A model generated the notes under the pieces. The model was not told where the DNA came from. It saw only the letters and a program-made list of their open reading frames with translations, and searched no databases. Source: a virus. From it: a DNA stretch of 32,828 nucleotides. The translations under genes and the position numbers were made by a program. The stretch lies in the UHGV virus genome UHGV-0144137. One strand, 5' to 3'. Below are positions 3,535-32,828 of the stretch, piece after piece (positions within the stretch are counted from its first letter, which is position 1; every line of letters starts with the position of its first letter).

Positions 3535-3609
3535 GGGTCAGTCGTATAAAGGTCATTACGGAAGGCTGTTAACCTTCTTATCGTGGTTCGAGTCCACGCT
3601 GTCCCGCCA
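3535..3609 (+). tRNA. tRNA-like gene, anticodon GTT (Asn) by manual folding
   Basis: Manual cloverleaf: acceptor GGGTCAG/CTGTCCC (one T-T mismatch at 4-69), D-loop with GG, anticodon stem GAAGG/CCTTC with loop CTGTTAA, T-arm CGTGG-TTCGAGT-CCACG, discriminator G, encoded CCA. The mismatch leaves pseudogene status open. Confidence 0.55.
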
Positions 3610-3614
3610 AATAT

Positions 3615-3690
3615 GCTGGTTTAGCTCCAATGGTAGAGCAGTCGCCTTGTAAGCGAATGGGTAGCGGTTCAAGTCCGTTAACCAGCACCA
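3615..3690 (+). tRNA. tRNA gene, anticodon TGT (Thr) by manual folding
   Basis: 76 nt cloverleaf: fully paired acceptor GCTGGTT/AACCAGC, D-arm TAGCTC...GGTAGAGC, anticodon loop CTTGTAA, T-arm AGCGG-TTCAAGT-CCGTT, discriminator A, encoded CCA. Confidence 0.7.
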
Positions 3691-22323: not shown

Positions 22324-22438
22324 AGCACACCTTTGGTATTCAATTTGATATCAAAGTGTATGCAAAAAAATTTTGACTAGATATACTCACCTTGCTATCT
22401 TTTGTATTCGAAAAGAGTTGTTTTGTATGGAGGGTAAC
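22324..22438. promoter_or_regulatory. Divergent immI-like control region (mnt and arc/ant promoters and operators)
   Basis: Intergenic region between divergent RHH repressor genes; 12 bp perfect palindrome TTTGATATCAAA at 22344-22355; TTGACT at 22373-22378; GGAGGG Shine-Dalgarno before the arc-like ATG. Confidence 0.5.
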
Positions 22439-22591
22439 ATGGAGAAAGAAATAAGTAAGATTTTGGTAAGGATGCCGCAGTCGTTAAAGGATGCTATCGG
22501 TAGTAGGGCAAAGGAAGAGTGCAGGTCGTTTAACTCAGAGGTTATCAAGCGACTGATAGACAGCCTGAAGAGGGAGGGGGTAGTGGTATGA
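22439..22591 (+). CDS. arc: Arc-like ribbon-helix-helix repressor
   Basis: Track ORF 22373..22591 trimmed to ATG 22439 (MEKEISKILVRMPQSLKDAIGSRAKEECRSFNSEVIKRLIDSLKREG): 50 aa, RHH pattern with the RSxNSE motif as in P22 Arc. Confidence 0.7.
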   Translation: MEKEISKILVRMPQSLKDAIGSRAKEECRSFNSEVIKRLIDSLKREGVVV

Positions 22592-22842: not shown

Positions 22843-23766
22843 ATGACGAGTGTAGCAATTGCAGAACATACAATCAACGTTCCATTCCACGGAACAAATC
22901 TCTTTTTGGTCAGCATTAACAATGAACCTTACGTTCCTATGAAACCCGTTGTAGAAGGCATGGGTATGGTTTGGGCTGCTCAATTTGTTAAATTAAAACA
23001 GAGATTTGTCAAAGGTATTTCGGAAATCGAAATACCTTCTGCTGGCGGTAAACAGTTAATGATATGCCTTGCCTTTCGTAAGTTTGCGGCTTGGCTTTCA
23101 AGCATTCAGCCAAACAAAGTCCGTCCTGAAATCCGCGACAAGGTAATCCAGTATCAGGAAGAGTGTGACGATGTGCTATACGAGTACTGGACTAAAGGTC
23201 ATGTAGTTAACCCACGCAAAGCTAAAAAGGCGTTGCCGGGTAAAATCACCACTGAACAGCAGGAAGCCATTAAACAACTCGTCATGAGTCGCGGTCAGTC
23301 TCTGCCAAAGGAAAAACAGGCTAAGGCGATGATCACCATGTGGTCGTCACTGAAATCCCATTTTGGATGTTCATACAAAGAAATCAGTGAGGAGCAGTTT
23401 ACCGAAGCACTGTCACTTGCAGCTCGAGTTCCGCTTGAAGGTGAGTTCATTGGCAAACAAGAGAAGAAAACCAACGAGCTTTCTGCAAAAGAAGCAAACA
23501 GCCTTGTATGGCTATGGGATTATGCCAACCGCTCACAGGCATTATTCCGCGAATTGTATCCGGCGCTAAAACAAATTCAATCGAACTATTCCGGCAGATG
23601 TCATGACTGCGGTTATGAGTTCTCCCGTATTATCGATATGGCGAGAGATGTTTTAATCAACCATACACGAGATGTTGATATTAATGAGCCAGACGGACCA
23701 ACAAACCTTTCAGCATGGATAAGACTTAAGAACAAAGAATTACCTCCTTCAGTACATAACTACTGA
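22843..23766 (+). CDS. ant: Antirepressor Ant
   Basis: 307 aa; N-terminal VPFHGTNLFLVSINNEPYVPMKPVVEGMG and internal IPSAGGKQLMICL / VIQYQEECDDVLY closely resemble P22 Ant as I recall it. Confidence 0.88.
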   Translation: MTSVAIAEHTINVPFHGTNLFLVSINNEPYVPMKPVVEGMGMVWAAQFVKLKQRFVKGISEIEIPSAGGKQLMICLAFRKFAAWLSSIQPNKVRPEIRDKVIQYQEECDDVLYEYWTKGHVVNPRKAKKALPGKITTEQQEAIKQLVMSRGQSLPKEKQAKAMITMWSSLKSHFGCSYKEISEEQFTEALSLAARVPLEGEFIGKQEKKTNELSAKEANSLVWLWDYANRSQALFRELYPALKQIQSNYSGRCHDCGYEFSRIIDMARDVLINHTRDVDINEPDGPTNLSAWIRLKNKELPPSVHNY

Positions 23767-23784
23767 CAGATAACCAACGCAACG

Positions 23785-23808
23785 ACCCAGCTTCGGCTGG
23801 GTTTTTTT
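23785..23808 (+). terminator. Intrinsic terminator after ant
   Basis: Stem ACCCAGC / GCTGGGT with loop TTCG, followed by TTTTTTT. Confidence 0.7.
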
Positions 23809-23866
23809 ATGCCCAAAATTCACCGTGGCCACGCTGCGGCGATTCATTGTATCTGGAGCAAATTAA

Positions 23867-25945
23867 ATGACAGACATTACAGCCAATGTTGTAGTGAGTA
23901 TGCCTTCGCAACTCTTCACTATGGCTCGTTCTTTTAAAGCCGTAGCCAATGGCAAAATTTATATCGGTAAAATTGACACTGACCCGGTAAATCCTGAAAA
24001 CCAGATTCAGGTCTATGTTGAGAACGAAGATGGTTCTCACGTTCCTGTTTCTCAACCAATCATCATTAACGCTGCTGGTTACCCTGTATATAACGGACAG
24101 ATTGCCAAGTTCGTAACTGTGCAAGGCCATTCTATGGCGGTTTATGATGCGTATGGTGCGCAGCAGTTTTATTTTCCTAATGTGCTGAAGTATGACCCTG
24201 ATCAGTTTCAGAAGAGGTTGGCATCCTTTGATGATGGTGATGGGGATGAATTAGTGTCGGTGAAACAACCATTCCCCGGAGCAGCAAATCAAACTCAACA
24301 CCAAAAGAACCAACAAATCATTGATGTTCTTGACTTCGGTGCTCATCCATCGAATGCTGACAATAAAGTAGCTCTGCAATTTGCGCTAGATGCAATATAT
24401 AGCATTGGAGGAGGTACACTACAGTTTTCACTACCAGGCATATATACTTTGCTTTCTGAGTTGCAAATAAAATCAAATACTCACCTAAAGATGACTGATG
24501 GCGTAACCATTAAACGTAATTTTTCTAATGACGTCATGCTGAGAATAAGCCCTAATACTGGCACTAACATTAAAATAACAGGCGGAATACTAGATGGAGG
24601 AGGACAAGACCACCCTACAGATCCTTTTGACATCATTGCAGCCTCCTCACCAAGAAATCTTTCTATTGTTGGAGTAACATTTCTTGATGTAGTCGATTTT
24701 CATGCTGTAGATATTGCTGACGGGCAAGGGGTGATTATAAGAGACTGTAAGTTTCTTGGCTTCAAACCACTTTCCAACCGAAATTATTCAGAAGCGATCC
24801 AGTTAGATCCGGGGATTGAATCTCTTGGCGATTATTACCCAAACATCAATGTTCTTGTTGATAACTGTTATTTTGGTTCAAATCCACAAAATACCACCAC
24901 TGGGTTTGGGGCGTGGGGGGTGGGGGTTGGGAACCATGCTAATTCATATGGGAATCAGGACAAAAATATAAGGGTCATAAACTGCAGGTTCGATGGAATG
25001 CTCTTTGCCGGGGTAAGGGTTTTCAACTGGTATGATTGGGTGGTTAGCGGATGCTCTTTCTATAACAGTACCGCGCGAGGAGTTCATGTAACCCCATTCC
25101 CATCATCATCAAAACCACAGGGGGCAAGGAGGGGGCGCATTGTTGGCAATTATTTTGAAGGCGTTAGATCCCCGATTCTTCTGGCTGCACCTACATATCC
25201 ATATACAGATACATCAGATGCATTTCATGAAGATATCGTAATATCCAACAATTCCATGTTTATTACAGAGTCTCAATCATATGCAGTAGACGCAAGATGG
25301 GTTTCAGGACTAACTGTCACTGGAAACACAGCAAGAGGCGGAATCGGTTTTTTCAAAGGTGATTTTATTAACAAATCAATCATCTCTAATAATGAATACG
25401 ATTCAGGAACATCAAGTTCTTTATGGATTTCTGAAACTAATGCAGAAGAATTTATAGGGTCTGGTTTTTCGCATGATGTTGTAATTTCTAGCAACATCTT
25501 TAGAAATATTTCCCTGCATGGGATTCATATTAATGGTAAATATTCAAATGTTACTATTCAATCAAACATTATAGTTGGGGTTTCTACCGCAGATAATAAC
25601 CATAATGGCATACGAATTGACTCTGGTGCAGAAAATGTAATTGTTAGTTCAAATCAAATTCGTGATGGCGTTGCAAATAATAAACCATCAGTTGGTATAT
25701 TTGCTACATCAAGCTGTAAGAGCGTGTCATTTATAGGGAATGTTTCATTTGGAACATCAGCCACACAGAATAATCAAGCTACAGATAAAAGCTCACTTGT
25801 GATATTTGGGCAAGAAGGCAACCCAACATCTAGCGGAGTTGGAGCACCAGTTGGTTCTATTTACACTCGTTCTGATGGAGGTGGAAATACAGTACTTTAT
25901 ATAAAGGAAAGCAACACAAATGCTACAGGTTGGGTTAATAAGTAA
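23867..25945 (+). CDS. Tailspike protein: P22-type head-binding domain plus divergent beta-helix receptor-binding domain
   Basis: 692 aa; the first ~115 aa ([34 protein letters not shown]...NVLKYDPDQ) match the P22 gp9 head-binding domain; the remainder is a Gly/Asn/Ser-rich beta-helix-like sequence on AT-rich DNA. Confidence 0.9.
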
Positions 25946-26472
25946 AACCAGCATTTAAATACAATATATATCATAAAACTTACATAATAGTTATAACTAT
26001 AATTCTTGCTTAAGAATTTATAAAAACTGAGACACACAAAGCTTTGCACTTGATTGCAAGGCGTTGTGCTCTTCGATAGTGGTTAAGGTGGATCACTCCA
26101 CCTTTTCATCAAGCCAGTCCGCCCACCACTGCATCATTTCTCTGCGCTTATCGAGATACTGAGCATGGTTGTAAATTCAGCTAACCCAATGCGTTGACAA
26201 AAAATTAGCGCAAGAGGACAAAAAATCACCTTGCGCTAATGCTCTGTTGTAGGTCACTAATGCCATCTAAGTAGTTGATTCATAGTGACTGCATATGTTG
26301 TGTTTTGTCGCATTTTGCAGTCTGTTATTTAACCGTAAATACTTATAAACATATGATTTTTAAATAATTTATATGATTTTGTCATCCTTTAGGTGAAAAA
26401 GAACGCTGGAGTACCAGCGGTGATGTTCACGAAATTAAAAATCTTCCTGTAATCCTCTATAGCAAACAGGCG

Positions 26473-26901
26473 TTGATGACGTCGGCAAAGGACGGCCTGT
26501 TGAAGAAGAATGTATCAGGGGTGAAGAGTTCCAAGCATGGCTGCTTTGTTTATGGCGATACCTCGTTTTCTTTCAGTGAGGTAATGGAAGCTATCTTCAT
26601 CAGTGGGCTGTTCTTCTATGCGCCAATAGACGCCGCCAGTAGTCTTGATGAACTGAAAGTGAGTTTGGCTGGGCTGGAAGAAGAACTGGCCGAAGTACCA
26701 AAAGTGGATTCGAATGGCAATGAAACAGATAAAGAACCTACTATAGTCGTAGCCGAAGGTGCTTTTGATTCGGTCGCTGCTCACATGGAAACAGAAGCTG
26801 AGGAGTGGCAATCTATTAAGAACCTGTGCCAACGAGAAGGTGAGCTGCCCATACGTATTGGTGGTATTAAAATGGCTGAGCCACCAGAGTTTCATTTTTA
26901 G
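26473..26901 (+). CDS. hypothetical acidic protein (first gene of two-gene accessory operon)
   Basis: 142 aa ORF 52 nt upstream of the 393 aa ORF, same strand; acidic C-terminal half; no recognisable motif; true start uncertain. Confidence 0.45.
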   Translation: MMTSAKDGLLKKNVSGVKSSKHGCFVYGDTSFSFSEVMEAIFISGLFFYAPIDAASSLDELKVSLAGLEEELAEVPKVDSNGNETDKEPTIVVAEGAFDSVAAHMETEAEEWQSIKNLCQREGELPIRIGGIKMAEPPEFHF

Positions 26902-26961
26902 TTTAAAAGCAACAATCTACCACTTAATGATTACGAAGCTATAAGTTGAAGGATGATTCAC

Positions 26962-28134
26962 ATGCCACACAAGAAAGTAGCATTACAGCTCATTGAAGAA
27001 ACACTTAAAGAACTCGAGTCACCAAAAGGTTCTTTGTTATCGGCTATACAAAAACTACAGCGGACTTCGGATATCATCAATGATGATGATAAAAAGATAT
27101 GGTGTGCTATTCAATTAGGTGATACTAAATATACAAAGCCAATAACTGAATTGCTTAAGTTTGTTATTGAGGCTGAAAATACAAAAAATAAATCTTTCCA
27201 AGAAAATTTAGACAAACGAATACAAGAACTTGCCAAATTAGGAGTTAAGGCTAATATACATTATTCAGATGAAGAACTCACATTAAAAAATATTGAAAGT
27301 GGTGGTGGATATAATAACATTGGGTTTATTGAAGAGAAATATGCCGATCTTGTAAGAAAAAAACAAGGCAATGACGGAACGTATTATAAGAATAGTTTAA
27401 ATCAACATATCAATTATGTTAGAAAAAAAGCACATGAATTAGCATCGCAAATATATAATCAACTAAAATTTTCAGGTACTGTCAGCAACTGTTTTGATGT
27501 ATTGAAAAATGCTGTTGATGATAAATTATTAGATCTAAATCCAGTGATCGCAGAACAACTAATGTTGGCATTTAAAGCTATTTCTTCAGATAAAGAAGAA
27601 GAATGGTCTCAAGCTTTAACTACATGTCGTAGGCTTCTAGAAGGGTTGGCTGATGAACTTTATCCGGCATCGAAGGAAAAATTTAATGGTCGGGCCGTTG
27701 GGCAAGGTCAATACGTAAACCGCCTTTGGGCATTTATGGATGGGGCTATTCAGTCTGATAGTAATAAAGACCTTGCCAAAGCACATATAGATTTTCTCGG
27801 ATCATGGTTAGATAAAGTTAATAAGTTAACAAATAAAGGTGTTCATGCCGAGTTAGATCGGATTGAAGCTGTAAAGTCAGTATTTCACACGTATTTAGTA
27901 GTGGCGGATTTGCTTGAGTATATGTCAAATACCAAAACCTCTGTATCTAAGCCTGATATCAATAAAGCTACTTTAGATGAACTGGAAGCATTGTTAAATA
28001 TAAATAGAACAATCGCTAAAGAAATTGTTAAAGCACGAGTTCGTGAAGGCAAGCTTGATCTGGATATTTTAAAAAACATAAAAGGTATAGGTGCTAAGAC
28101 GCTTAGTAATATACAAGAAGTGTTTGTTATGTAA
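26962..28134 (+). CDS. hypothetical alpha-helical protein with C-terminal ComEA-type helix-hairpin-helix DNA-binding domain
   Basis: Track ORF 26953..28134, start set to ATG 26962 (GAAGGA Shine-Dalgarno 9 nt upstream); C-terminus INKATLDELEALLNINRTIAKEIVKARVREGKLDLDILKNIKGIGAKTLSNI fits the ComEA HhH pattern; AT-rich codon usage. Confidence 0.6.
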   Translation: MPHKKVALQLIEETLKELESPKGSLLSAIQKLQRTSDIINDDDKKIWCAIQLGDTKYTKPITELLKFVIEAENTKNKSFQENLDKRIQELAKLGVKANIHYSDEELTLKNIESGGGYNNIGFIEEKYADLVRKKQGNDGTYYKNSLNQHINYVRKKAHELASQIYNQLKFSGTVSNCFDVLKNAVDDKLLDLNPVIAEQLMLAFKAISSDKEEEWSQALTTCRRLLEGLADELYPASKEKFNGRAVGQGQYVNRLWAFMDGAIQSDSNKDLAKAHIDFLGSWLDKVNKLTNKGVHAELDRIEAVKSVFHTYLVVADLLEYMSNTKTSVSKPDINKATLDELEALLNINRTIAKEIVKARVREGKLDLDILKNIKGIGAKTLSNIQEVFVM

Positions 28135-28170
28135 TTTATTTAGTATTTAATTGATATAATATCATGAAAT

Positions 28171-28206
28171 AAAATCGGGAGTTCATACGTAGCAACTCCC
28201 GATTTT
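28171..28206. terminator. Bidirectional terminator-like hairpin between convergent genes
   Basis: Perfect 10 bp stem ATCGGGAGTT / AACTCCCGAT flanked by AAAA and TTTT. Confidence 0.55.
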
Positions 28207-28225
28207 ACGATGATATGTTGTATTA

Positions 28226-28592
28226 TCAATCCATCAAACCACGTGAGGTCTTACTTGCAGTCTGACGAAAATCATAACGTTCCACAACATCACCCTTAAA
28301 CCAGATATCCAGTGATTTAATGTGTGCTGTGCTGCTATTGGTCAATAGAGCAAGGCCCGGTATGTAGTTAGATAGTTGGCTTTCTCCCGTCATACTTGAG
28401 TAGTTCCACATCTCCTGTCCATCATTCGTAGCGCTCTCCAAAGGCAGCAAGAATTTCTTGTTGGGTTGTTTTTCCCTTGACGATTTTAACTTTAACCGTC
28501 TGATGATTTTCATCAGTTAGGGATTTATTACCATGAACGGTACAGCCACCAAGTGGTAATATTATAAAAATAGCAAGTAATAATTTTTTCAT
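28226..28592 (-). pseudogene. Lipoprotein gene apparently split by a frameshift
   Basis: Two overlapping minus-strand ORFs (28422..28634 and 28226..28513) in different frames; the upstream one carries signal peptide and lipobox MKKLLLAIFIILPLGGC (ATG at 28592), the downstream one lacks its own signal; overlap region contains a homopolymer run. Confidence 0.4.
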
Positions 28593-28623
28593 TTTTGTTC
28601 CAGAAATAGATGAAAGGTGAGAC

Positions 28624-29112
28624 TCAGAAAACATACTTTTTAAATACCAGCATCCATCGCTTGCAAAGTTCGTGATTTGAGGTGCTTAAATTTTTCAGGG
28701 GAACATTAACTTTCCACATGGGATTTTTAATATCATCGGTTAAAATATTTAGGCCAGACCGTTTATTCGCTGAAAGTTGTTCTCTACAGTTAGCAATAGC
28801 CGCATTATTCATACCTCGTAATGTTCCATTGCCATAAAACTTACCCCCCTCTGAAAGCGTATAATTTATTTCTCGAATTTGATCAAAAGTATATGTGCTG
28901 TCTTTATCTTTATTGAAAATACGGACAGTATGTTTTTGAGTATCAATAACAATACCTGTCTGTTGGCATTCATACGAAAGAATGTCGCCGTCCAGAACTT
29001 CCGTAAAGCTGTTGTAGTGCTTTTTCTTTTGTATATCTACTGCTGTCATGATGATGATGAAGAGCACCACTAAAAATACGATACCTACTGCTTCCAATCT
29101 TACTTCCTCCAT
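28624..29112 (-). CDS. hypothetical membrane-anchored protein
   Basis: 162 aa; N-terminal TM helix (AVGIVFLVVLFIIIMTAV) then soluble domain; AT-rich; divergent from the lipoprotein operon across the GATC-rich region. Confidence 0.55.
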   Translation of the reverse strand: MEEVRLEAVGIVFLVVLFIIIMTAVDIQKKKHYNSFTEVLDGDILSYECQQTGIVIDTQKHTVRIFNKDKDSTYTFDQIREINYTLSEGGKFYGNGTLRGMNNAAIANCREQLSANKRSGLNILTDDIKNPMWKVNVPLKNLSTSNHELCKRWMLVFKKYVF

Positions 29113-29224
29113 GTAAATGAGTTAAAGAGACTGAACCTGCTCACAGAGCTTTGCTACGTTTTATACGTCCTACAGCACCAAGCTCATGGCGTCGGTCTCG
29201 GCGTTGCAAGGCTATCAGAACTTG

Positions 29225-29375
29225 AAATCATGATCGATATAAAAGATCGATAATTAATTATTGATAGGCTTTAACGATTAAAACAATGATATTGATCGAT
29301 TATTAATTGTTTTTATCGATCGAATATTTATTTATGATAGCTATTGGCTATCATAAGGTTGTTTTTGATCGTTTT
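29225..29375. promoter_or_regulatory. Divergent intergenic control region with clustered GATCGAT repeats and a 10 bp inverted repeat
   Basis: GATC at 29232, 29245, 29294, 29318 and 29367; the 7-mer GATCGAT occurs three times direct and once inverted; imperfect 22 bp direct repeat GATCGATwATTAATTrTT (29245-29266 and 29294-29315); inverted repeat TTATGATAGC-N5-GCTATCATAA at 29332-29356. Confidence 0.5.
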
Positions 29376-29529
29376 AAACGATATGACGAGACGCTAAAAG
29401 AATTGAATCCTATCAATTGGTTAAGCGGTGGTTTTGCCATGTGATATCAGCCGGATCCCGCAACAACTCTAGCCCTGACCAGATTTGGTCAAAAATTTAG
29501 GCACTTTGATTATCAGGATGGATAAGCAG

Positions 29530-30060
29530 ATGAAGAAGATTTTACTCGTTGCTGGCGCAGCTCTGGCACTGGCGGGATGTGGTGAGAAAGGTGATTTTGA
29601 GAAGGCGATCAATGCCAAGATAGGGCAGGACAAATATTGCTTCTCGCTGGATAACAATAACACCAGCTTCCCCATCCGTCTTGCCAAGCCACGACTTGAT
29701 TCGACTGGTACAGGGACGAATTCAGTGATCCTCGATGGATTTGTAGAGCAGGGAATGATGGTCTTTGAGCAGGGCTATGATTCGAACGTATTAGGGATAA
29801 CAGAGGAAGGCAAAAAAGCCAAAGTCTGGAGCACAACAGATGGTGCCTGTGTTGGTCGTCGTGCTGTTGACGGGATTAAGGAATGGACTGAGCCGGGAAA
29901 CGGTAATCAGAAAGTAGTTCGCGTGACTTATACGTGGAAGCTGGTTGACGTTCCGGGCTGGATTGACAAAAAAGCATTCGCCAGCGTTAAAGGAATGAAT
30001 GAACCTGCTGATGGTGCCATGAATCTCTTTAAGACCAGCAATGGCTGGAAAGCCAATTAA
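29530..30060 (+). CDS. Predicted lipoprotein
   Basis: Track ORF 29485..30060 trimmed to ATG 29530 (MKKILLVAGAALALAGCGEKG...): signal peptide with lipobox LAGC. Confidence 0.7.
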   Translation: MKKILLVAGAALALAGCGEKGDFEKAINAKIGQDKYCFSLDNNNTSFPIRLAKPRLDSTGTGTNSVILDGFVEQGMMVFEQGYDSNVLGITEEGKKAKVWSTTDGACVGRRAVDGIKEWTEPGNGNQKVVRVTYTWKLVDVPGWIDKKAFASVKGMNEPADGAMNLFKTSNGWKAN

Positions 30061-30070
30061 GGAAACCAAT

Positions 30071-30346
30071 ATGGAAAACAATACCATCAAATGCCCGTTC
30101 TGTTTCAAAGAGAGCCAGCGTGGGGTTCACGTTTGCACAGGTTGCTTAGCGACTGTGTTATATGGCACTTATCCCGGCTGGTATGCTGCTGTTGTTTTGT
30201 TGTTGACTTTTGGTTTATCGACGTTGATCGGTATGTCAACAGGTATGGCAGGAGCTACTATCAGTCTACCAATAATTGCGGTTGTTGGGTTTATAGCTGG
30301 TAAGGCGATATTCTCTGATAATGTTGTGTTTAGGCGAAAGATATAA
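30071..30346 (+). CDS. small membrane protein with N-terminal zinc-ribbon (CPFC...CTGC)
   Basis: Track ORF 30041..30346 trimmed to ATG 30071 (AAGGAAACC Shine-Dalgarno); CxxC-x15-CxxC then two hydrophobic helices; 10 nt downstream of the lipoprotein gene. Confidence 0.6.
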   Translation: MENNTIKCPFCFKESQRGVHVCTGCLATVLYGTYPGWYAAVVLLLTFGLSTLIGMSTGMAGATISLPIIAVVGFIAGKAIFSDNVVFRRKI

Positions 30347-30405
30347 AAAACGAAAAGAATTATATGATGGGCGACCTTTCATAGTTCGCCCATATATAAA
30401 TATAA

Positions 30406-31242
30406 CTAAAGACCATTTCTCGCTGATTTTATATCCAATAAGTTTATTTTATCTATCTTATCTTTGTGGATAACGATAGTAAGCTTTGCCGGAAATTTAA
30501 ACCTCATTTCACTTATTCTAAAAGTCCACAACATTATTTTAAGTAAATCCTCATCGCTAATATTTTTATGTTCCTTTATTCTAGTGATTCCAGATCCAAA
30601 GATAGGAACAGAGACACTTTTTTGAGCATATATACGATTAACTTTGTCCCAAAAATTTATTAAAAATGCTAGATAATCCGGCATTGTAAGAAAAGCTCTA
30701 TTTTTGTCGTCAAATTTTGAAAACGCAGTTAATAGATAATCATTATTAACGAAGATAGTTCCTAGCGAATATTTTTGTGTTTTACCCACTTTTCTTTTAT
30801 GGTTGACCTCAAGCAGTTCATCTTCTTCAAACTGATGATTTGAAATACGATGGTCCAAATCAGATACGGATCCCGCTAAATAGTTATCAATATATAATCC
30901 ATTAAGTGAATTATGAGAAATGATAACATCATCAACTTGCGTGTCAAAATATTCATTAAAAGCAATGACCTTGAATCCATCTTGTCTGAATAAATCGCCT
31001 GCTTTTACAGTAACAATGCTGCCCTCAACATCTAAATTAATTTCCGAAAGATTATTTGATTTAAACCATATGCCGAAATACAGTAAGAATAAAATAATTA
31101 AAAATATAATACCAAGTGTTAGTTTGTTTTCTGTTGGAATGTCTACAAAAATCAAAAAAAGTGAAAATATGGTACTAATAGTTGATGTGTAGTCTGAAAA
31201 TTTTTTAAGTATACGCTTATCGAAAAAATTAACTTTCGCCAT
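30406..31242 (-). CDS. Two-TM membrane protein with C-terminal Macro-like domain (ThsA type II-like effector candidate)
   Basis: 278 aa; two N-terminal hydrophobic helices (TISTIFSLFLIFV, LGIIFLIILFLLYFGIWF); downstream motifs DDVIISHNSLNG and SVPIFGSGITR resemble Macro-domain ADP-ribose-binding motifs (by eye); about 30% GC. Confidence 0.55.
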   Translation of the reverse strand: MAKVNFFDKRILKKFSDYTSTISTIFSLFLIFVDIPTENKLTLGIIFLIILFLLYFGIWFKSNNLSEINLDVEGSIVTVKAGDLFRQDGFKVIAFNEYFDTQVDDVIISHNSLNGLYIDNYLAGSVSDLDHRISNHQFEEDELLEVNHKRKVGKTQKYSLGTIFVNNDYLLTAFSKFDDKNRAFLTMPDYLAFLINFWDKVNRIYAQKSVSVPIFGSGITRIKEHKNISDEDLLKIMLWTFRISEMRFKFPAKLTIVIHKDKIDKINLLDIKSARNGL

Positions 31243-31378
31243 TTTTGTACCAACCTTGTTAATTATATGTAATTCAAGTGTGTTGATAGTAGTTTCTTAT
31301 AAATGATGTTTACACTATCTGATATATAAGGTATTTTCAACATGTTGATACTAATGTTGACTGCTTCATGGGGACTAT

Positions 31379-31888
31379 ATGAGTTATCGTAATAAGACAT
31401 ATGTGGCTTTTGCAAGTGAAGATATAAAGTTTTATCGTCTTATGGAGGCATGGAAAGCAAATGAAAAAATAGACTTTAACTTTTTTGATGCTCATGATCT
31501 CTTTATTTCAAGGGATACAAGTAAACCTGAAACCATAAAGCGAAACCTCCGCGAAAGGATGAAAAATGCTAAACAAGTAGTACTGTTGGGAAGCGGTAAT
31601 ACTAAGAGAAAAGGTAGCGATGGAGTATCGTTTCTTGCCCATGAAATAGATCTTATCGTAGAATTTAATCTTCCTGTTGTAATAGCTAATTTAGACGGAG
31701 ATAGAACAGTCGATAAGAACTTCATTCCTAAACCACTTTTAGATTCAGAACATTATACAGTATCTGTCTCTTTCCAACCTAAAATTATTAAATATGCATT
31801 AGATAATTACTGTGTTAACTATTACTCAAGTTCAAATAGTGGTAGTTATCTATACCCTACATCTGTTTATACTAAGCTAGGTCTGTAA
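31379..31888 (+). CDS. TIR-like (DUF1863 / ThsB-like) protein candidate
   Basis: 169 aa; N-terminus KTYVAFASEDIKFYRLMEAW and later VVLLGSGNT...AHEIDL fit the pattern of TIR-like ThsB proteins as I recall it; divergent from the TM-Macro gene. Confidence 0.5.
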   Translation: MSYRNKTYVAFASEDIKFYRLMEAWKANEKIDFNFFDAHDLFISRDTSKPETIKRNLRERMKNAKQVVLLGSGNTKRKGSDGVSFLAHEIDLIVEFNLPVVIANLDGDRTVDKNFIPKPLLDSEHYTVSVSFQPKIIKYALDNYCVNYYSSSNSGSYLYPTSVYTKLGL

Positions 31889-31914
31889 TATTTCAACGTA
31901 TACTAAACAATATG

Positions 31915-31941
31915 TGGAATGAGCACGGAACACTCATTCCA
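31915..31941. terminator. Hairpin between convergent genes
   Basis: 9 bp stem TGGAATGAG / CTCATTCCA with 9 nt loop, in an AT-rich intergenic region. Confidence 0.4.
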
Positions 31942-32019
31942 TAACAAACATACTATTTAGATGTGCTAATACAATTAATTTTATGCATCGAAGATATTAA
32001 GCACTTATGATTTATTGCT

Positions 32020-32828
32020 TTATCTTCTCCTGTATGCTATTTCAGCCAACTCTCTTGCTATTTCCTTAACGCTATATAAAGAAGTTTGCAGTGCCATTTT
32101 ATCCGCCAAATAATGGCTGTATTTAGATACCTCTTGAGCATTGATATTATGCCAGATTGGCAATATAATCTTATTATCATCATACACTGCACGATTAATT
32201 AAACTATCTAATTCGTATTGTGTCCATTTCTTGTTTAGAAAGTTATGAGAAAGTATGACTATGCCATAATTTGCTTTTCTTAGGCCTAAATCAATATTTC
32301 TCCTTAAGCTATCGCCGACTTCAAGTGTCTGTTCATCATACCAAATAATTACACCAAGTCTATTTAACTCGTCTACCAGTGGTCTGACAAAAGTATCTTT
32401 ATCCTCTTTTGCATGGGATATGAAAAAATCATAGTGCGTATTATTGTTATCTTGCATGACGTCATTCTGTATTTCATATGGTTGATGAAAAATTGCTTGT
32501 AATTTTGCCCAGTCTATTTCTGCTAAAGATTTATTATTGCGATAAAATAGTTTTTGGGAAGGGAAATCAATATTCGAAATGTAAATAATAAATATATTAT
32601 TTATTTTCTTTGCCTCAACCTCCTTCCACTCCCATCTATAATCGTGGATATAAGAAATTGATGCTTGAAAATAATCATTGGAAGTTAAATTACCTGCGCG
32701 AAATGTCGCATTACTAATATTAAACGCGAGATATGAGTTACCTTCTCCGTTGAAAATAATATTATATCCCTCTTTCAATAGATATGAACGAATCTCTTTG
32801 GTTTTTAGGTGCTGTTTCCATGCGAGGA
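32020..32828 (-). CDS. TIR-domain protein (N-terminus beyond window edge)
   Basis: Canonical TIR motifs YDFFISHAKEDKDTFVRPLVDEL...WYDE...IVILSHNFLNKKWTQYEL in the C-terminal half; the reading frame stays open upstream of the TTG at 32778 to the end of the window, so the gene is probably truncated by the window. Confidence 0.75.
   Translation of the reverse strand, partial: LAWKQHLKTKEIRSYLLKEGYNIIFNGEGNSYLAFNISNATFRAGNLTSNDYFQASISYIHDYRWEWKEVEAKKINNIFIIYISNIDFPSQKLFYRNNKSLAEIDWAKLQAIFHQPYEIQNDVMQDNNNTHYDFFISHAKEDKDTFVRPLVDELNRLGVIIWYDEQTLEVGDSLRRNIDLGLRKANYGIVILSHNFLNKKWTQYELDSLINRAVYDDNKIILPIWHNINAQEVSKYSHYLADKMALQTSLYSVKEIARELAEIAYRRR

Follow-up and report, generated by a model that had tools for sequence, protein, structure and literature searches.

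The tailspikes of phages P22, Sf6, HK620 and CUS-3 share the same plan: a head-binding domain that ends in the motif YDPDQ(F/Y), a neck, and a parallel β-helix. Their genes (P22 gp9, Sf6 gp14, HK620 gp9 and the CUS-3 endosialidase gene) also lie in the same place, following the immunity region with ant/arc and close to the att end of the prophage. In lederbergviruses, a modular architecture of anchor and receptor-binding part is well established, as is horizontal transfer of the receptor-binding domains (PMC10408124).

Two other kinds of protein are close to the tailspike described here. The spikes of the Vectrevirus (T7-like) phage LL11 (CPT_LL11_053) and of phage vB_Eco_K-01 (711 aa) contain a homologous module that is 47–49% identical over its full 577 aa, and they also have the C-terminal tail ...GAPVGS.YTR.DG....LY.KES......GWV.K. 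Their anchors differ, being very short in Vectrevirus and of the PF18668 type in K-01, and both phages are lytic, whereas the phage described here is temperate. PfbA of Streptococcus pneumoniae (PDB 3ZPP, 4MR0), a surface protein that binds plasmin and fibronectin, belongs to the same β-helix branch of the pectin-lyase fold. It is an adhesin anchored in the bacterial cell wall, has no head-binding domain, and is not known to have enzyme activity.

The window, that is, the whole stretch of 32,828 nucleotides analysed here (UHGV-0144137), is colinear with P22 over its first 26.4 kb. The match runs from the nin region through gene 23, the lysis genes, gene 10 (13242–14639, 81% DNA identity), genes 26/7/20/16 and ant into the beginning of gene 9. 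The tailspike gene (23867..25945, + strand) is an intact, uninterrupted reading frame in the open reading frame list, with an ATG start and 692 codons before the stop. It has the gene position typical of P22, following an Arc/Mnt-like ORF (22373–22591) and, directly upstream, the Ant anti-repressor ORF (22843–23766), and lying near an attP-type arm (26185–26401). E. coli strain 755 has an equivalent P22-like prophage, the last gene of which is annotated “phage tailspike protein”. Full-length copies with this same annotation are carried by 24 complete E. coli genomes, and the protein is 99% identical to a protein cluster with 336 member sequences (P0001). It is very probable that this is a two-module tailspike of a P22-like (Lederbergvirus-type) temperate podophage, in which a cassette swap has changed the receptor specificity from that of P22. 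The features of the locus are as follows.

23784..23803, + strand: putative terminator-like hairpin between ant and the tailspike gene (consensus scan)
23867..24207, + strand: head-binding (particle-attachment) domain, aa 1–114, ending in YDPDQF (Pfam PF09008, identity to P22-like spikes)
24205..24210, + strand: 5′ recombination joint at gene nt ~341, last conserved bases ...GATCAGT followed by T, in the YDPDQF codons (Megablast ends, collapse of alignment identity)
24208..24316, + strand: neck and N-terminal cap leader, aa 115–150, ending in ...TQHQKN (weak similarity to other spikes; low model confidence)
24317..25945, + strand: receptor-binding right-handed parallel β-helix with a small C-terminal cap, aa 151–692 (AlphaFold, Pfam)
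24701..24937, + strand: putative substrate or active centre, H279, D282, R305, E309, Q312, D314 and H357 (26-sequence family alignment)
25946..26022, + strand: cassette-specific 3′ untranslated tail, with the 3′ joint at ~26022 (similarity to phages and prophages with other spikes returns at ~26020–26023)

The hairpin is in a position equivalent to that of the annotated tANT of P22 and HK620. An antisense ORF (23807–24130, − strand, 107 aa) overlaps the start of the tailspike gene within the conserved head-binding coding region; it lacks independent support and is most likely spurious. Elsewhere in the prophage, genes for tRNA-Asn (GTT) and tRNA-Thr (TGT) are found at 3535–3690, in the late-leader region downstream of the antiterminator gene, and the same pair is annotated in strain 755. 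An ORF of the homing-endonuclease type with NUMOD4 and HNH_3 domains (14683–15243, 39.8% GC) sits between the gene 10 homologue and an Sf6-type tail-needle gene (15215–16069, Phage_tail_NK), a position at which neither strain 755 nor P22 has a counterpart.

An earlier note on this DNA had proposed that the first ~115 residues are a P22-type head-binding domain, and this is borne out. The Pfam Head_binding profile (PF09008) is covered in full by aa 1–113 (E 4.5e-67), and aa 1–115 match the head-binding domains of P22, Sf6 and HK620 in the PDB with E-values of 1e-45 to 1e-80. Identity over the domain is 98% to HK620, 97% to CUS-3, 93% to Sf6 and 76% to P22 gp9 (87 of 114 residues), so that it is nearer to the versions in E. 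coli and Shigella phages than to that of P22. The similarity to gp9 is not full-length: by BLASTP, the match to P22 gp9 stops at aa 114, and nothing significant was found past that residue (next best segment, E 0.49). Likewise, 28 PHROG families have just the N-terminal ~120 aa in common with this tailspike. The AlphaFold model of aa 1–146 is unreliable, with pLDDT below 50 in the head-binding part, because only two or three alignment rows cover that part; the fold of aa 1–114 is thus assigned from sequence identity alone.

The break is equally sharp in the DNA. Megablast against 50,697 phage records returned 26 matching records, and all of the matches end at query nt 339–345. In a multiple alignment with HK620, Sf6, CUS-3, 720R6 and an E. 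coli prophage with another spike, identity per 30-nt window is 0.83–1.00 up to nt 330, falls to 0.47–0.73 at nt 331–360, and is at background beyond. The proposal that the tailspike is a fusion of modules thus holds at the DNA level, where identity to other lederbergviruses is 90–100% in 30-nt windows and stops abruptly at gene nt ~341. On the other side, the joint lies ~77 nt past the stop codon: the prophage with another spike regains similarity at 26022, and 106 phage records, including HK620, Sf101, Gally, JEP4 and lambda/434, match from query nt 75–78 (~26020–26023) onward. Together, the collapse at ~24207 and the return at ~26022 delimit an exchangeable cassette of ~1.8 kb (~24208–26022).

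Between the tailspike gene and the att arm, ~85 nt are left of the 3′ end of an integrase gene of the IntS type (26093–26178); strain 755 has matching sequence at the end of its intS, as do HK620 and HK633 in their integrase genes. The remnant is a relic of an earlier swap of integration modules and belongs to the conserved 3′ recombination arm. The right end of the prophage is an attP P-arm of the HK022/lambda type (26185–26401), 85% identical to the annotated attP of HK022 and 88–90% to those of the lederbergviruses Gally and 611R6. Similarity to the tcpC island of E. coli 536 begins at 26391, within a hypothetical gene (homologue of ECP_RS09850). Since the similarity starts inside a gene, the phage appears to have integrated into this island gene, and the ORF at 26473–26901 appears from its sequence to be the truncated remainder of it. 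The island segment (26391–32828) is AT-rich (35.9% GC) and 99.9% identical to E. coli 536 and others, and islands of this kind occur in many E. coli genomes besides that of strain 536. It encodes the following proteins.

26953–28134: ComEA-like HhH protein
30406–31242, − strand: macro-domain protein
31379–31888: TIR-domain protein
32020–32778, − strand: NAD+ hydrolase TcpC

The history of the cassette was examined by comparing three E. coli copies with that of the window, separately for the head-binding part (nt 1–341) and the receptor-binding part (nt 342–2079). Nucleotide divergence from the window copy is as follows.

Strain 755 (non-O25 cluster): head-binding part 3.5%, receptor-binding part 0.12%
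Strain 317 (O6): head-binding part 7.3%, receptor-binding part 0.75%
ST131 strain 4433 (O25b): head-binding part 3.9% (153 nt compared), receptor-binding part 0.00%

The nucleotide differences among the copies are concentrated before gene nt 325. At the protein level, the window tailspike is identical to the ST131 copy over aa 64–692, and the receptor-binding part differs by two residues in strain 755 and by six in strain 317. The four prophages have different integration modules and sit at different sites: between sbcB and dacD (4433), at argW (755), at att-lambda by ybhB/bioA (317), and in the tcpC-island gene (window). A near-clonal cassette on diverged backbones indicates recent exchange of the cassette.

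The receptor-binding module also recurs in other phages, where versions 45–60% identical over the full length are joined to five or more unrelated N-terminal anchors. In a Rahnella prophage (P0002), it follows a head-binding domain; in P0004, P0007 and phage vB_Eco_K-01, it follows N-termini of the PF18668 type; and at least two further anchors precede it in P0003, P0006 and P0008. In Vectrevirus phages such as LL11, it has almost no anchor and makes up the second tailspike (570 aa), which adjoins a K5 lyase spike. Accordingly, phrog_2234, a family of tail spike proteins that includes this second tailspike, is matched over its full length (E 7e-60; aa 3–536 of the β-helix query against positions 187–707 of the 757-position profile). 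An exhaustive search of 1.84 billion representatives yielded 63 relatives at E ≤ 1e-30 and 1498 at E ≤ 1e-3. The receptor-module family is thus of moderate size and mostly unannotated; among characterised relatives, identity does not exceed 25% to a solved structure or 49% to any isolated phage.

The horizontal exchange that the earlier note had suspected is therefore seen in two ways, in the presence of the module on at least five anchors and in the contrast between 3.5–7.3% divergence in the head-binding part and 0–0.75% in the receptor-binding part among the four copies. Receptor-binding domains are in general under diversifying selection, and one might suppose that no exchange took place and that the C-terminal part simply diverged vertically, evolving faster than the anchor. 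This is scarcely conceivable here. The break in identity is only a few bases wide, and among the spikes in the phage collection, the module is nearer to those of unrelated T7-like phages (47–49%) than to those of other P22-like phages. Among the copies, moreover, divergence is lower in the receptor-binding part than in the head-binding part, whereas faster evolution would have made it higher, and the GC content of the module at third codon positions (GC3) is distinct. Vertical divergence is thus effectively refuted, leaving cassette exchange as the preferred reading.

The receptor-binding region had also been described as AT-rich. Its GC is indeed low for the phage, but the difference is modest and patchy. 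The receptor-binding part has 39.7% GC and a GC3 of 0.289, against 42.6% and 0.40 in the head-binding part. The baseline was taken from the prophage part of the window only (1–26390; segments of 1734 nt, mean 46.6%, sd 2.7), because the last 6.4 kb of the window are AT-rich island. By this measure, the receptor-binding part is the lowest-GC stretch in the prophage, in which upstream segments of the same length never fall below 41.9%, and its GC3 is the lowest among all phage ORFs (others 0.34–0.58). The drop begins ~120 nt past the joint and is uneven, with 44% GC in codons 78–154, 45% in codons 309–462, and 32–36% in codons 463–616 (32% in codons 540–616). A sliding-window GC profile, which had been suggested as a means to place the joint, was consequently dropped: composition is patchy within the receptor-binding part and shows no step at the joint, which is located by DNA identity instead.

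Past the head-binding domain, the neck and cap leader is weakly shared with Sf6 (aa 118–186, E 8e-10), MFDS1019527 (53%), K-01 (58%) and P0004 (50%). The remainder is predicted by AlphaFold, from a 26-sequence alignment and as a monomer only, to be a continuous right-handed parallel β-helix with a small C-terminal cap, with pLDDT mostly above 90 over aa ~150–692; the mature spike is presumably a trimer. Pfam Beta_helix (PF13229) matches aa 457–598. The description of this region as β-helix-like and different from P22 is thereby supported, as the prediction is all β-helix, the fold expected of a P22-type tailspike, with no homology to P22 gp9 residues ~125–666. The nearest relatives in fold are PfbA, a cyanophage spike and AlgE4. 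PfbA is the only relative in the PDB that is detectable by sequence (E 1.7e-14), in a match limited to aa 151–401. Similarity in both sequence and fold, together with the N-terminal cap motif, places the β-helix with the PfbA-like proteins. Identities of 22–28% in global alignments between unrelated β-helices were regarded as alignment noise and not used.

The similarity to PfbA extends to a putative active centre. In the 26-sequence family alignment, H279, D282, Q312 and H357 are invariant, and R305, E309 and D314 are nearly so (≥90%). H279, D282, Q312, D314 and H357 align with PfbA H293, Q296, Q331, E333 and H377 (offset counted by hand); H279, Q312 and H357 are thus kept, while Q296 is replaced by D282 and E333 by D314. 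The residues probably cluster spatially in the tailspike. The authors of the PfbA study regard the corresponding residues, which lie at the base of its carbohydrate cleft, as a conserved putative active centre. The site reminded them of polysaccharide lyases, although they found no lyase activity on the substrates they tried (PMC3718772). In the tailspike, the residues themselves would fit either of two chemistries: the two Asp substitutions and E309 could form a glycoside hydrolase centre, the His/His/Arg set that of a lyase.

Since PfbA is the best match in both sequence and fold, and no catalytic activity has been found for it (PMC3718772), the β-helix might, like PfbA, only bind its receptor. 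This appears improbable. The residues that replace Q296 and E333 are acidic and, with E309, are invariant or nearly invariant across the phage homologues, as would be expected of a catalytic centre. Most β-helix tailspikes characterised so far are depolymerases. The tailspike is thus more plausibly an enzyme, with the conserved residues as candidates for its catalytic centre.

The β-helix has no sequence relationship to the endorhamnosidase domain of P22, which suggests that its target differs from that of P22. The full-length matches in the 24 complete E. coli genomes bear on what that target may be. One variant group accounts for 20 of them (query nt 16–2079, 99.4–99.5% identity). Three matches are labelled O25b:H4-ST131, one of them in the 20-member group and two with a different allele. 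The O25 rfb cluster is present in four of the carriers examined (4433, Ecol_AZ146, A1.S1.18 and AH21C082), at a fixed distance of ~55–66 kb from the spike gene.

These data could mean that the module is an endoglycosidase specific for the O25b O-antigen and matched to the pandemic ST131 O25b:H4 clone. The dominance of one variant group, the three ST131 labels, the O25 cluster in the four carriers and the identity of the receptor-binding sequence to the ST131 copy over aa 64–692 all favour this idea, as does the location of the prophage ~18 kb from rfb/gnd/his, so that co-transfer is possible. Yet it is doubtful on several grounds. An allele that differs by only six residues in the receptor-binding part sits in strain 317, which has an O6 wzx/wzy cluster, and one that differs by two is found in strain 755, whose O cluster has gne upstream of galF, lacks the rml genes (rmlBDAC) and the O25 wzx, and has a wzx cut by IS1. 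The prophage copies are therefore not restricted to one O serogroup, being found with O25, O6 and a third cluster. The ST131 copies probably represent one clonal inheritance and count as about one event. Furthermore, by a published criterion, a receptor-binding subtype found in prophages of several serogroups probably targets something other than O-antigen (PMC10408124). The inference of O25b specificity from the ST131 labels was accordingly weakened once the rfb clusters of strains 755 and 317 had been located, and since hosts of the O25b, O6 and third O-types carry the same module, a single O-antigen type is improbable as its receptor.

In strain 4433 (O25b:H4-ST131; record 1,970,022–2,037,890), the prophage lies between sbcB and dacD, its integrase being separated by only ~18 kb from gnd and the O25 rfb cluster, and the spacing is identical in Ecol_AZ146, A1.S1.18 and AH21C082. 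In the ST131 genomes, prophage and O-antigen locus could thus have been transferred jointly by recombination. In strain 755 (record 2,504,575–2,512,656), the flippase gene of the O-antigen cluster is truncated beside IS1 and the polymerase gene is split; this strain may be O-rough despite its intact tailspike prophage.

Ranked slightly above O25b specificity is a target common to extraintestinal E. coli of phylogroup B2 that is not O-antigen, such as a group 2 capsule, another exopolysaccharide or the LPS core, possibly attacked by lyase-type chemistry. This proposal is tentative, falling somewhat short of an even chance. It would account for a module found in hosts of three O-types, and P22-like phages can have capsule-specific spikes, as exemplified by the CUS-3 endosialidase. 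The conserved His/His/Arg/Gln/Asp centre corresponds to the PfbA site that appeared lyase-like to its authors (PMC3718772), and lyases and epimerases (AlgE4, RbmB and K1 capsule lyases) are among the fold neighbours; however, so are many hydrolases. Nor does the apparent link to colanic acid help, as that label stems from the head-binding part only: the colanic-acid-degrading family phrog_8280 matches the full-length protein but is absent for aa 116–692 or aa 151–692 alone, even at E ≤ 10.

The Vectrevirus homologues were also considered as a guide to the receptor and dropped, as LL11 infects enterotoxigenic E. coli (ETEC), on which it was isolated (PMC6687929), and this gives no clue. In the Vectrevirus literature, no receptor was found for the LL11-type second tailspike, and the specificity of the LL11 and K-01 spikes need not equal that of the present tailspike, as identity is below 50%. 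Papers on tailspikes linked to O25b/ST131, and on the P22-like prophages of ST131, were also searched and yielded nothing specific to this protein.

A model of tailspike function and exchange can be put together from these observations. Residues 1–114 would dock the spike onto the tail hub, a role suggested by the 76–98% identity that they share with the domains of P22, Sf6 and HK620, whose structures are known. Residues ~151–692 are predicted to form a right-handed parallel β-helix of the PfbA-like branch of the pectin-lyase fold, which, by analogy with other spikes, is likely to bind a polysaccharide of the host surface along a lateral groove and most likely also to cleave it. Such binding or cleavage would let the virion reach the outer membrane. 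The cassette at ~24208–26022 is flanked by arms conserved in many P22-like and lambdoid phages, the 5′ arm being the head-binding coding region and the 3′ arm the integrase-remnant and att-proximal segment. Homologous recombination in both arms can swap the cassette, and in this way the phage lineage very probably came by a receptor specificity other than that of P22.

As a mosaic, the tailspike is ordinary and well understood and adds no new principle; it is a textbook illustration of the domain swap by which P22-like phages usually change host specificity. The receptor-binding cassette, for its part, is an uncharacterised PfbA-like subtype, and its intact and almost invariant presence in prophages of the pandemic ST131 clone and of O6 strains gives it practical value. 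A bolder proposal is that the module represents an uncharacterised clade of PfbA-like phage depolymerases acting on a glycan common to O25b ST131, O6 and other extraintestinal pathogenic E. coli, and that its conserved His/Asp/Glu/Gln/His centre would reveal the activity of the PfbA family, which has long been sought. This is speculative and rather unlikely, but if true, it would provide a serotype-independent handle on ST131-type pathogens. Once its glycan target is known, the receptor-binding protein could be used for typing or targeting these pathogens, and the target could suggest a substrate class for the enigmatic PfbA family.
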